NCBI RefSeq assembly: GCF_049075655.1 | Contig: NZ_CP157522.1 | Coordinates: 160,001 to 224,000 of the forward strand | Direction: 5' to 3' | DNA: 64,000 bases | From: Methanothermococcus sp. Ax23 | Lineage (GTDB): Archaea > AGJL01 > Methanococci > Methanococcales > Methanococcaceae | Shown: in pieces, positions 23,436-40,997 of the stretch | Layout: each line of letters starts with the position of its first letter | Numbering within the stretch: position 1 is the first letter of the stretch | Program-made: the position numbers and the translations under genes | The notes under the pieces: generated by a model | Databases searched by the model: none | What the model was told of the DNA's origin: nothing | What the model saw: the letters and a program-made list of their open reading frames with translations, nothing else

Positions 23436-23482
23436 TTGGAGCGAAGCAGAGAGCTATATAAATCCGAAGGATTTTTATTCAA
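23436..23482 (+). repeat. double-hairpin mini-element copy (solitary)
   Basis: TTGGAGCGAAGCAGAGA-GCTATATAAATCCGAAGGATTTTTATTCAA, close to array unit 2. Confidence 0.8.
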
Positions 23483-32968: not shown

Positions 32969-34168
32969 TTAAACTAATTCCCCCTTAAATGCTTTATTTA
33001 AAATACTTTCTTTTAATTCTTTGAATAGGTTTAATTGTTTTTCTTGTAGTTGTTCTAATTTTTTTATTTTGTTATGTAGATTGTCTAAATATTCGGCGAT
33101 TTCTTTTTGTTTTTGTAGGTCTGGTTTGTTGTCTTTGTATGGGATAGGGATTAAAAGGCTTTCAAATTTTTTCTTAGTTATATGTTTCATGGTAGAACCA
33201 TGAGTTTTATCTGTAATACTCTTCAATATAGGCTTAATCGCGAAATACATATATTTTTTATCAATATATTCATTTTTCAACTCCACTTTAAAAATATGTT
33301 GATTTAATAGAGCCTTTCCACCACTCCAAATATATGCGTCAATTGAAGCAGACCACGATATTAGCAAATCCTCATTTTGAATATAGTATTTTTTTTCGAC
33401 AGGTTTTGAACAATAATTATATGGTGCGTTTGGATTATTTAAATTTTGAATTCTAATTATGGGTAGTCCCGTCTCTTCCCATTCAGAAGGCTTAAAAGCT
33501 CGTCCATTTATATATTTCCCCACATCTCCCAATCTAACCAATTTAAACCCTTCATCTTTAAAAACCTTATTTAAGACAGAATTAAATAAATCCTTTGTTT
33601 CATTTAATGCTTTTTGTCTTAATTCTATTGCTTTGTTAATATTGTTAAAGAGAGTTTCTATTTTATTAACAATTTCCTTTTGTTTTTGTAGGTCTGGTTT
33701 GTTGTCTTTGTATGGGATTGGGATTAAAATTTCTTTTAATTTTTTTGCATTAAAATTTGGTTTAACTCCTCCACTCGGCACTATTTGACTCCAATAATAT
33801 TTAGATTTAAAAAACATGTCTAAATAATAAGGATTAACAACATCTAAATTAGGTTTAATTTTTATCAGATAGGAAGCAAAAATTACGGGTTCTGAAAGAT
33901 TTTCTTTAATTAAATATGTTTTACCTGTTGTTGAACCAGTCCTTGCAAAAAGTATATCTCCTTTCTTTAAAATATATCTACTTATATCTTTTTCTGGCTT
34001 GCAATATGGGACATTCTCCCAATTTACATTGTTATCTTGTATATCAGTAATTCTTAAAAGTTTTATTCCAGTATTTTCTTTTAGAGCTTTTGTAGTGTAG
34101 CCATATTGTGGATTTTCTTTTAATAAATCTTCCAATCTAACCAATTTCCAACCATCTGGCAATTCCAT
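32969..34168 (-). CDS. hsdS: type I R-M specificity subunit
   Basis: ELPDGW start, two TRDs, repeated IPIPYKDNKPDLQKQKEI, C-terminal SILNKAFKGEL. Confidence 0.95.
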   Translation of the reverse strand: MELPDGWKLVRLEDLLKENPQYGYTTKALKENTGIKLLRITDIQDNNVNWENVPYCKPEKDISRYILKKGDILFARTGSTTGKTYLIKENLSEPVIFASYLIKIKPNLDVVNPYYLDMFFKSKYYWSQIVPSGGVKPNFNAKKLKEILIPIPYKDNKPDLQKQKEIVNKIETLFNNINKAIELRQKALNETKDLFNSVLNKVFKDEGFKLVRLGDVGKYINGRAFKPSEWEETGLPIIRIQNLNNPNAPYNYCSKPVEKKYYIQNEDLLISWSASIDAYIWSGGKALLNQHIFKVELKNEYIDKKYMYFAIKPILKSITDKTHGSTMKHITKKKFESLLIPIPYKDNKPDLQKQKEIAEYLDNLHNKIKKLEQLQEKQLNLFKELKESILNKAFKGELV

Positions 34169-35824: not shown

Positions 35825-36025
35825 TTATTCAACCGTAGCAAAGCGAGTGGGCTATAAAATCCGTTAGGATTTTATTCAATCGGAGCGAAGCGGAGAGCTA
35901 TAAAAATCCCAAAGGGATTTTTATTCAATCACATCGAAGATGTGAGCTATAAAAATTACTTCGTAATTTTTATTCAACCACGAGCAAAGCGAGTGGGCTA
36001 TAAAATCCGTTAGGATTTTATTCAA
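35825..36025 (+). repeat. tandem array of four 47-49 bp double-hairpin units
   Basis: units 35833-35879, 35880-35928, 35929-35977, 35978-36025; each = hairpin A + GCTATAAAA...TTTTATTCAA; leading TTATTCAA at 35825. Confidence 0.9.
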
Positions 36026-36950
36026 ATTCAATTGTTGCCGGTGGTTTATCTGTAATATCTAAAACAACCCTTGCAACATTTGGAACTTCTGATGTGATTC
36101 TTTTACTTATTCTTTTCAATACACTGAATGGGAGCTCAGGCACACTTGCAGTCATTGCATCAAGGGATTCAACAAACCTTACTGCAACTACCCAATTGTA
36201 TTCTCTTATGTCTCCTTTAACTCCTGTTGCCTTTGTATCAAGCACAGCGGCAAAATACTGCCATAAATCTTTATCGAGACCTTCTTTTTCTATCTCTTCC
36301 TCAACTATGGCATTTGCTTCCCTGCACACTTCCAACTTTTCCTCTGTGATTTCCCCTAAAATTCTTACTGCAAGACCGGGTCCTGGGAATGGCTGTCTGT
36401 TTGCTATTTTATCTGGAAGCCCCAATTCTCTTGCCAATATTCTTACCTCATCTTTATATAATTCTCTCAACGGCTCAACAACTTCAAGCACCATTCCGCT
36501 TGGCAATGCTATGTTGTGGTGTGTTTTAATGTCCCCTTCACTTTCTATCCAATCTGGTGCAATAGTTCCCTGAACAAGAACCTCTTCACCGTTTTCCTTT
36601 GCAACTTCCTCAAATACTTCAATAAATAATCTTCCTATTATCTTCCTTTTCTCTTCTGGGTCATCTACTCCCTTTAATTCCTTTAAAAATAAGTCCTTTG
36701 CATTAATTATTTTTAAGTTAAGTCCCATATCTTCTTTAAATATTTTGTAAATTTCCTCTGCTTCATTTTTTCTCATAAGTCCTGTATCAACAAAGACTGC
36801 TAAAAGTCTGTCCCCTATTGCCCTGTCTGTAAGAACTGCGGCTACTGAACTATCTACGCCACCACTAAGTGCTATTATTGCCTTTTTGTCCCCTATTTGT
36901 TCCTTTATTTCTGAAATGGATTCTTCAATGAATTTTTTAGCATCAAACAT
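36018..36950 (-). CDS. guaAB: GMP synthase subunit B (ATPPase)
   Basis: [36 protein letters not shown]. Confidence 0.95.
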
Positions 36951-39623: not shown

Positions 39624-39668
39624 TTGAACAAAATCCTTCGGATTTTGTAGCCCTTCGCTTCGCTACGG
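39624..39668 (-). repeat. double-hairpin mini-element copy inserted in the IS left-end hairpin
   Basis: minus strand CCGTAGCGAAGCGAAGG-GCTACAAAATCCGAAGGATTTTGTTCAA. Confidence 0.85.
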
Positions 39669-39746
39669 TGGGATGAATTGCGGACAAAATATATAAATGG
39701 TATAGTGATAACATACTATTTATAAGTTATCAAACTGTGATGCCCA

Positions 39747-40997
39747 ATGATAAGGACTTACAAGTTCAGGATTTATCCTTCAAAGAGTATCCAAAGAACA
39801 ATAGAGGAGCATCTAAATATATGTAGATACCTTTATAATTATCTTTTGGAACAAAAAACTAAGAATCCAAAACTAAACAAAATGGATACTCAAAAACTAA
39901 TTACAGAGCATAAGAGGGAGAATCCTGAACTTAAAAAAGTCCATTCAAAAGTATTACAGATGGTAAATAACAAGCTTTGGGGAAATCTCAAAGCATTAGG
40001 GGAACTAAAAAAGAATGGATTCAAAGTGGGGAAGTTAAGGTTCAAATCCTCTAAAAATCATTACAAAACATTAGAATACAATCAATCAGGTTTTAAGATT
40101 GATTATAACACTAAAAAACTAAAACTATCCAAGATTGGAGAAATTCCAATAGTATTACACAGAAACATCAAGGGAGAAGTTAAAGGAGTTATTATAAAAA
40201 AAGAACCTACTGGCAAGTGGTTTGCCTTCTTCCAAGTTGAGGAGGAACCTAAACCACTACCTAAAACTAACAAAGTTGTAGGTATCGATTTAGGAATCGA
40301 TGGTTATACCATCGATTCAGATGGTAATAAATTTGAAAATCCAAAGTTTATAGATAAGACATTGGATAAAATAAAGAGAGTTCAAAAGAACCTATCCCGA
40401 AAGGTTAAGGGTTCGAACAACTATAAAAAGACCAAACTAAAACTTATCAAGGTTTATGATAAACTAAACAATCAGAAAAATGATTTTCTACATAAGTTAT
40501 CTAGATACTACATAAATAACTACGATAAAATAATTTTAGAAGACTTAAATATAAAATCGATGGTTGAAAATGGAAAATGTAAGACCTTAAACCGTCATAT
40601 TCTTGACGGTTCATGGCGTAAATTCATAAATCTACTTCTCTACAAGGCGGAGGGTGCTGGTAGAGAAGTAATATTAGTAAATCCCCATTATACTTCTAAA
40701 AAATGTTCCAACTGCGGGCATGTTGTTAAAGACTTAAAACTTTCAGATAGAATCTTTTTTTGTCCTGTCTGCGGTTGGAAAATCGATAGGGATTATAACG
40801 CATCCCTAAATATATTAAAGTCAGGGCTGGGAGAGTCCGTTGTGCCTGCCGAGAGAAAACCTCTGCTCCAAACTATTTCTTATAAAGAAGTGGTTTTGGG
40901 GCAAGTTTTCTCAATGAATCAGGAAGCCTTGCCCGAAGGGCGAGGGCTACGAAAACCGAAAGGTTTTCGTTTAACCCCGTCCGTAAGGGCGGAGTAA
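39747..40997 (+). CDS. tnpB: RNA-guided endonuclease TnpB
   Basis: RTYKFRIYP N-terminus; RuvC D (GIDLG), E (ILEDL), D (DRDYNA); CSNC/CPVC zinc ribbon. Confidence 0.95.
   Translation: MIRTYKFRIYPSKSIQRTIEEHLNICRYLYNYLLEQKTKNPKLNKMDTQKLITEHKRENPELKKVHSKVLQMVNNKLWGNLKALGELKKNGFKVGKLRFKSSKNHYKTLEYNQSGFKIDYNTKKLKLSKIGEIPIVLHRNIKGEVKGVIIKKEPTGKWFAFFQVEEEPKPLPKTNKVVGIDLGIDGYTIDSDGNKFENPKFIDKTLDKIKRVQKNLSRKVKGSNNYKKTKLKLIKVYDKLNNQKNDFLHKLSRYYINNYDKIILEDLNIKSMVENGKCKTLNRHILDGSWRKFINLLLYKAEGAGREVILVNPHYTSKKCSNCGHVVKDLKLSDRIFFCPVCGWKIDRDYNASLNILKSGLGESVVPAERKPLLQTISYKEVVLGQVFSMNQEALPEGRGLRKPKGFRLTPSVRAE

Follow-up and report, generated by a model that had tools for sequence, protein, structure and literature searches.

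The tandem array that overlaps the stop codon of guaA in this archaeal genome is probably a pile-up of four copies of a non-autonomous mobile element, 47-57 nt long, which is made of two hairpins and whose 3' end regenerates its own target. Judged from the orthologous sites, the four-unit block is an insertion. The relatives G016 (GuaA 99% identical) and G010 (94%) read without interruption through TTTGA(A/G)|TAAGTTTATTTTTT, in the context ...ATTGAATTTGA(A/G)|TAAGTTTATTTTTTT, and the genome analysed here (G000) has the same flanks with a four-unit block of 196 nt between them. The check for empty sites in the guaA 3' region that came with the original prediction thus found the whole block absent from the closest relatives and the junction otherwise conserved. 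Orthologues of guaA were found in 22 of the 23 genomes of the archaeal family, all with one protein ending, the sole miss being a genome that is 64% complete. A covariance model of the unit detected none at the guaA stop in 21 relatives; in G022 (L026), one unit lies upstream of guaA instead.

Layout and composition of the guaA array

The window, the whole stretch of 64,000 nt under analysis, corresponds to C1:160001-224000 of a 1.67-Mb genome with 32% G+C. Tandem Repeats Finder reports positions 35825-36025 as a tandem repeat with a period of 49, 4.2 copies and a score of 175. Direct reading of the sequence divides 35833-36025 into four head-to-tail units of 47, 49, 49 and 48 nt, which abut without spacers (Table 1), and a CRISPR array was rejected on that ground. 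Read from 5' to 3', hairpin A comes first, rich in purines and closed by a GAA or AAA loop; GCT separates it from hairpin B, which is A/T-rich, and TCAA ends the unit. The motif GCTATAAAA-N(9-20)-TTTTATTCAA is present four times in the window and absent from each of 100 shuffles. Four double-hairpin units were what the original prediction had described at this stop codon, and the repeat finder, direct reading and the shuffles bear it out. It was also right that hairpin B varies and yet stays perfectly paired (in 4/4 units, with three different stems), and that TTATTCAA brackets the array, the last copy being the 3' end of guaA on the other strand: the gene ends ...ATT GAA TTT GAA TAA, with a final 8-mer that is the reverse complement of the TTATTCAA closing unit 4. 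Its description of the first module as a hairpin holds less evenly. The stem of hairpin A is perfect in unit 3 only; in units 2 and 4 it contains G.A-type purine-purine mismatches and can form on the + strand only, and in unit 1 the 5' arm is altered.

Logan contigs of runs X1 and X2 match 35850-36012 without any difference, so that the array is not an assembly artefact, with the reservation that one of these two runs may be the source sample itself. Runs X3 and X4 have no contig over 35931-36298 and are uninformative either way.

Units 1 and 4 are 94% identical overall and share an identical segment of GCT, hairpin B and TCAA; they may stem from a local duplication or from two insertions from one source. 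Unit 2, as had been predicted, is closer to the solitary copy at 23436 (88% identity) than to unit 3 (73%), and three dispersed copies share its hairpin A exactly. No array neighbour of unit 2 or unit 3 exceeds 73-80% identity to it, and dispersed copies are closer to both. By its sequence, hairpin A of unit 1 looks like a recombinant, a chimera of two hairpin-A types, and the array as a whole is a composite to which three or more different source units have contributed.

Local tandem duplication of one ancestral unit by slippage, followed by divergence, would account for a head-to-tail periodicity without spacers and for the resemblance of units 1 and 4, whose B parts are identical. The empty site in a relative with a 99% identical GuaA leaves too little time, however, for units 2 and 3 to have diverged as far as they have, with compensatory changes in their stems, and both have closer relatives elsewhere in the genome. 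Slippage is disfavoured for the whole array, where we consider it highly improbable, and is possible for the pair of units 1 and 4 only. The closer dispersed copies and the empty site in a near relative uphold the earlier view that units 2 and 3 differ too much from units 1 and 4 for this process.

The array folds far more stably than shuffled sequence, at -65.1 kcal/mol on the + strand (z -5.9) and -58.7 kcal/mol on the - strand (z -4.4), with 0/200 shuffles as good in either case. A T-run of 4-5 follows each hairpin B on both strands, and the array lies exactly between two co-directional transcription units, guaA (with a CTP synthase gene upstream of it) and hsdM/hsdS. These features would suit a module selected by the host, either a bidirectional terminator or insulator stack between guaA and the R-M operon or a small-RNA locus, to which we give little chance. 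Relatives that lack the array already have a T7 run after guaA at the empty site, units of this kind also occur inside coding sequences and insertion sequences, and hairpin B has almost no G.U pairs, unlike RNA helices. No Rfam family matches at its gathering score in the window or at seven other copy loci; a relaxed Rfam scan of the array gave STnc490 as its best candidate, with 24.4 bits against a gathering score of 56, and a structured RNA family was rejected. A pile-up of mobile units would probably be neutral for the host, and its hairpin-plus-T-run modules could provide extra transcription stops after guaA. The original prediction had also placed the array at the border of an R-M island. 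This link looks incidental, as the TTGAA that serves as target belongs to guaA itself and copies of the family occur throughout the genome.

Table 1. Positions of the array, its units and neighbouring or related features (window coordinates unless a contig or locus is named)
Feature	Position	Strand	Remarks
TTATTCAA, original guaA 3' end (TTGAATAA in gene orientation), displaced beyond the array; contains the TTCAA target	35825..35832	+	Single 8-mer copy in the empty sites of G016 and G010
Unit 1, 47 nt: CCGTAGC-type hairpin A with mismatched 5' arm; GCT; hairpin B ATAAAATCC/GGATTTTAT; TCAA	35833..35879	+	94% identity to unit 4, B part identical
Unit 2, 49 nt: hairpin A TCGGAGCGAAGCGGAGA; GCT; hairpin B ATAAAAATCCC/GGGATTTTTAT; TCAA	35880..35928	+	Best match over the whole unit: solitary copy at 23436 (88%)
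Unit 3, 49 nt: perfect hairpin A TCACATC-GAA-GATGTGA; GCT; hairpin B ATAAAAATTAC/GTAATTTTTAT; TCAA	35929..35977	+	Nearest copy C1:550749 (80%)
Unit 4, 48 nt: hairpin A CCAC-GA-GC-AAA-GC-GA-GTGG; GCT; hairpin B as in unit 1; TCAA	35978..36025	+	Terminal 8 nt encode guaA ...(F)E-stop in the opposite orientation
guaA, GMP synthase ATP-pyrophosphatase subunit, 310 aa, ends IEFE*	36018..36950	-	Pfam GMP_synt_C 8e-38
hsdM, type I R-M methylase, downstream neighbour of guaA	34179..35684	-	Pfam N6_Mtase 2.6e-64
hsdS	32969-34168		Pfam Methylase_S 5.6e-39
Solitary intergenic unit	23436..23482	+	Covariance-model match, 61.2 bits
Unit within a left-end hairpin (TnpB insertion sequence)	39624..39673	-	Paralogous IS copy C1:337398 without the unit
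tnpB, 416 aa, IS200/IS605-type element	39747..40997	+	PF07282 match, ORF
Unit-like module (hairpin, GCT, hairpin, T(C/T)AA) in the tnpB 3' end/right-end region	40923-40974		Covariance-model match, 34.7 bits
TCACC-subfamily loci	G000:C1:420843-420899; G016 L069, L070, L068; G010 L064; G020 L067, L071

A dispersed family in genes and insertion sequences

The covariance model and genome scan suggested with the original prediction were run and reveal a dispersed, evidently mobile family. Built from 13 copies found by regular expression, the model retrieves 29 full-length copies in G000, these 13 seeds included. Copies were found in 8 of the 23 genomes of the archaeal family (71 in G020, at E<=0.001; 27 in G000, 24 in G009, 18 in G016, 12 in G022, 6 in G010, 2 in G021 and 1 in G005). 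Across the class they are present in 15 of 40 genomes, including 8 of the 17 in a second family, and were detected in none of seven genomes of the mesophilic genus Methanococcus at E<=1e-4; about 150 candidates were scored per genome, and the absences are soft. The 67 copies listed for G020 are interleaved in orientation (39 + and 28 -), and no replication-linked bias is visible in these together with the 29 copies of G000.

In 58 distinct copies from relatives, hairpin B has standard pairs in 100% of cells, a value that is partly an ascertainment effect of a covariance search that favours paired copies, with almost no G.U and with double-sided changes at 8 of its 10 pairs. Hairpin B is a DNA-type palindrome. 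Hairpin A is 65-75% paired in these 58 copies, in an alignment fitted to the model. The most conserved letters of the unit are the linker GCTA and the terminal TTCAA, and the 3' terminal pentamer of 52 relatives' copies reads TTCAA (33 copies), TTTAA (10) or CTCAA (4).

The copies occupy three kinds of place: intergenic DNA, TnpB insertion sequences and, in frame, the inside of protein genes. At least 5 of the 29 copies of G000 are inside long ORFs. The glutamyl-tRNA synthetase (GluRS) gene (G000:C1:1007847-1009403, L092/L096) contains an exact in-frame unit of 57 nt, equal to 19 residues, just upstream of LSTSKM; the insert reads IGQKSQSDFCSSSLASLTPIE including flanking residues and is absent from all five relatives compared (G016, G010, G020, G009 and G022). 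A 57-nt unit is likewise in frame in an LMW phosphatase gene (G000:C1:567459-567896), where the site is empty in 4/4 matching relatives, and in these two cases the units add 19-21 residues per protein. In an ATP-grasp gene (G000:C1:49990-50961), a unit lies in frame on the gene's own strand, and both relatives compared are empty. A further unit is inside the ORF of a tnpB gene (G000:C1:946113-947384).

In the acylphosphatase gene (G000:C1:126022-126387), a unit rewrites the C-terminal tail; the site is filled in G000 and G010 and empty in G016 and G009. The units at G000:C1:126025-126081 and G010:C1:1176783-1176839 are identical over 52/52 positions within flanks that are 84% identical. Together with the absence from the closer relative G016, this identity suggests a recent site-specific re-insertion, a transfer or a precise loss. 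Three of the units in the phosphatase, acylphosphatase, ATP-grasp and tnpB ORFs share the antisense frame ...SDFCSS(S/P)(L/F)ASLTPI.... In-gene units have ACAAAA or ACGAAA in hairpin B and not ATAAAA, a replacement that removes the TAA stop from the frame in use. We also observed a unit at the same position of an acylphosphatase-like paralogue in two genera (G016 L042:1501-1550 and G020 L085:394-443), apparently in frame. Between these two, hairpin A shows a compensatory pair change (CCAAAGC/GCTTTGG versus CCGAAGC/GCTTCGG), and the unit looks like an old insertion in which pairing has been maintained.

One subfamily of intergenic copies, with a hairpin A of the form TCACC-loop-GGTGA, is found 2-3 nt upstream of a spacer plus ATG (Table 1). 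Its unit duplicates the GGTGA ribosome-binding site, which could be sequestered in the hairpin, and the number and type of units at the same site vary between species.

The 21 TnpB matches of G000 carry many double-hairpin insertions, which fall into several subfamilies; some variants have GCA as linker and end in CTAA(TT). Left-end hairpins, right ends and tnpB ORFs are all affected, several of these ORFs being truncated, and so is the stretch after tnpB that should hold the guide RNA scaffold. Paralogous IS copies without these units exist. The unit-like module in the right end of one IS family may itself be an insertion. Further TnpB loci with units are L089 (G009) and L088 (G021). TnpB elements are present in 14 of the 15 unit-bearing genomes of the class and in 5 of the 25 unit-free ones, an association that is partly circular, since relatives are not independent and some model matches are modules inside insertion sequences.

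Apparent insertion rule, probable array growth and possible routes of movement

At the phosphatase site, the empty sequence gcTGGAACAAAAG corresponds to gcTGGAA[TCGGAG...GTTCAA]CAAAAG when filled. At the acylphosphatase site, GTTTAACTCC (G009) corresponds to ATTTAA[TCGGAG...GTTCAA]CTCA (G010), the junction TTTAA|CTCC becoming TTTAA[unit...GTTCAA]CTCA. From such empty and filled junctions it follows that the element extends from hairpin A through TTCAA and sits directly 3' of a pentamer. The element inserts precisely, and the pentamer appears to be usually TTCAA or TTTAA, more loosely NNNAA. At four of seven independent sites (guaA, GluRS, ATP-grasp, acylphosphatase) the target is TTCAA, TTTAA or TNCAA; it is TGGAA at the phosphatase, and the non-AA sequences TCCC(C/A) and CCCT at an IS left end and an IS right end, respectively. 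Of 52 copies from relatives, 38 are preceded by an A, with the register off by two for one subfamily. The unit ends (5' TCGGAG... or CCGTAG..., 3' ...TTATTCAA) are not inverted copies of each other, so terminal inverted repeats are absent. No target duplication is seen in the empty and filled pairs of the phosphatase, the acylphosphatase and the left and right IS ends; the guaA, GluRS and ATP-grasp sites are ambiguous in this respect, as the target there resembles the unit's own end. A classical MITE, dependent on a DDE transposase, was rejected for want of terminal inverted repeats and target duplication.

This rule would explain head-to-tail arrays without spacers, because the 3' end of a unit re-creates the preferred target and would offer new landing sites at both junctions. 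Arrays do recur: there are seven adjacent pairs among the matches listed in the genomes of the family, and G020 has arrays of about 5-6 non-identical units, some with nested insertions. At orthologous sites, one unit in G000 stands against two in G016, and G010 and G016 differ in composition.

At guaA, a unit landed at the end of the gene, TTTGAA-TAA, which is TTATTCAA on the element strand, and this unit, ending in TTATTCAA itself, rebuilt the last codons and the stop of guaA. Its TTCAA ending would then have served as a fresh target for further units at either junction, giving a head-to-tail array of non-identical units. The original prediction of an accreting array at one site is favoured by the insertion, the dispersed mobile family, the affinity of units 2 and 3 to dispersed copies, the target-like unit ends and the recurrence of arrays. 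That the four units arrived one by one is more doubtful: units 1 and 4 are possibly a duplication, and no intermediate array states were found at guaA among the relatives compared.

The main rival is template-switch copying at hairpins; hairpin-rich DNA is a known trigger of template switching and gene conversion at stalled forks. Units would then be copied between loci by microhomology-primed switching or gene conversion, without a transposition enzyme, the guaA block arising in one or two events and units 1 and 4 by local duplication. We regard this as unlikely, although several observations speak for it. Microhomology, variable in length and phase, is frequent at the junctions (8 bp of TTATTCAA at guaA, TTCAATC at GluRS), TCACC is common to unit starts and 3' flanks in the TCACC subfamily, and unit 1 looks like a chimera. 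At one site in an IS right end, hairpin B is all that distinguishes the units of C1:1458065 and 1587819; no copy repeats another, although hairpin B is perfect throughout; and there is no transposase of the expected kind in G000 (see below). Against it, junction homology is slight or absent at several sites (AA only at the phosphatase, none at the IS left and right ends). The boundaries, from the start of hairpin A to TTCAA, are constant across unrelated sites and two archaeal families, which argues for a defined element. The identical 52-nt unit at the same acylphosphatase site in G000 and G010, despite flanks of 84% identity, also speaks against template switching.

The least certain step in the movement of such an element would be the enzyme. 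By analogy with IS200/IS605 elements, we favour the view that units may be mobilised as single strands, by 'peel and paste', with a Y1 (HUH) transposase acting in trans, a route that has been proposed for the 52-bp terminal-only PATEs of haloarchaea. A single-stranded DNA substrate fits, because the G.A-mismatched hairpin A with its GAA or AAA loops forms on one strand only. Several observations weaken this case, among them the interleaved orientation of copies noted above, which lacks a replication-like domain pattern. A search for the Y1 transposase domain PF01797 gave no match in G000 and none in G020, the genome with most copies; across the class, it is intact in only 3 of 40 genomes (G021, G029 and G036) and broken or partial in three more. 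No parent IS with matching ends was found among the 21 TnpB matches of G000 or the tnpA+tnpB elements of G009 and G021; right ends in this comparison are TTCAC, GTCAG or GTCAT, with targets like TTAAC or TTAC. IS608-type ends have two similar hairpins, and a spacer carries the guide bases. In the unit, hairpin A does not resemble hairpin B and follows the 5' target with no spacer. No two units in G000 are identical (the best pair reaches 94%), which is odd for a recently active transposon. The second contig of G000 (C2:1-7732, L134; 7.7 kb), in which neither a unit nor a HUH protein was found, is probably circular, with a large helicase-like ORF across its ends.

A more far-reaching version of the mobile-element reading, which we think quite unlikely, is that the units represent a class of self-seeding mobile DNA without a resident transposase of its own kind. 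Its sites would form an ordered record of insertions, and hairpin B would be regenerated at each move, one arm being copied from the other. Such units might be mobilised by TnpB/omega-RNA elements or by host replication and repair at extruded hairpins, and would rewrite ribosome-binding sites and add loops to essential proteins.

Comparison with described elements

Several known families of small hairpin DNA share features with the units. REP/BIME sequences are tiny hairpin repeats mobilised as single-stranded DNA by RAYT Y1 transposases; they are extragenic and alternate in orientation. The units resemble them in being tiny, clustered, strand-asymmetric hairpins, and several copies of hairpin A contain GTAG. 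They differ in being arranged head-to-tail, in having two different hairpins, in not being confined to extragenic DNA and in that no RAYT/PF01797 gene was found. A REP/BIME-RAYT system was rejected, given the lack of a PF01797 match, the head-to-tail units and at least 5 of 29 copies inside long ORFs. Rickettsia palindromic elements (RPEs) are hairpin-forming selfish DNA of about 100-150 bp, inserted in frame in essential genes of bacteria. The units, too, lie in frame inside conserved protein genes (GluRS, LMW phosphatase) and are absent from orthologues; they are shorter, archaeal and without sequence relation to RPEs, for which we know of no tandem accretion. The double-hairpin elements of Allomyces and chytrid mitochondrial DNA and the very small dispersed repeats of cyanobacteria are one- or two-hairpin units of some tens of bases. 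Like the units described here, they insert into each other and into structured regions with pairing preserved; their genomes and sequences are different, and to our knowledge no TTCAA-type terminal or target rule has been reported for them.

The closest described analogues are the 52-bp PATEs and the SMRs of Haloquadratum. In the account of Dyall-Smith et al. (2011, PMC3119063), the terminal-only 52-bp PATEs of Haloquadratum walsbyi derive from IS605-type transposons and show strain-specific insertions without an intact IS200-type transposase in the genome. The units match these PATEs in size (about 50 bp), in the lack of terminal inverted repeats and target duplication, and in having palindromes close to both ends and a conserved oligonucleotide at the 3' terminus; the short targeting sequence on the 5' side of PATEs has an apparent counterpart in the pentamer (PMC3119063). 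Compared with PATEs as presented there, the units have no parent IS with matching ends that could be found, dissimilar hairpins and no spacer between target and hairpin. Their target resembles their own 3' end, which leads to head-to-tail stacking, they occur in frame in genes, and their hosts are Methanococci and not haloarchaea. The same paper calls the mobilisation of SMR-A enigmatic, with no transposase and no target duplication, and describes preferential insertion into the near-terminal palindromes of IS605-type elements and PATEs (PMC3119063). Several of our units also lie in near-terminal palindromes of IS605-type elements. SMR-A are given in this source as about 110 bp long, bounded by prominent inverted terminal repeats and >95% identical among members of one type (PMC3119063), whereas units of 47-57 nt have neither such repeats nor identical copies.

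What is particular to the units is the target-regenerating end, the lack of any recognisable parent IS or transposase in G000, and the breadth of places invaded. A search of the full-text literature, with most subscription journals outside its coverage, returned no description of such elements in Methanococcales. If our reading is correct, the element of thermophilic Methanococcales, at about 50 nt, ranks among the smallest mobile elements known, and a simple rule, landing after TTCAA and ending in TTCAA, explains its arrays. Cultivable organisms with this family provide natural sites in both the empty and the filled state. Mesophilic Methanococcus species are genetically tractable and, apparently being free of units, could serve as clean test recipients. 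The question of movement without an intact transposase, raised earlier for haloarchaeal PATEs and SMRs, could be addressed in the units of Methanococcales. For annotation, it matters that units extend or interrupt real genes (GluRS, phosphatase, acylphosphatase, tnpB) and duplicate ribosome-binding sites. They also disturb the ends and guide-RNA regions of TnpB elements, which are of interest as genome-editing tools.

A pattern scan of the whole collection found three loci only, one of them in a Methanothermococcus MAG. Bacterial occurrence was rejected for two contigs (L136 and L137) labelled as a Bacteroidales MAG, whose flanks match Methanococcales loci; on this sequence evidence, they are probably archaeal DNA that entered the MAG by a binning error.
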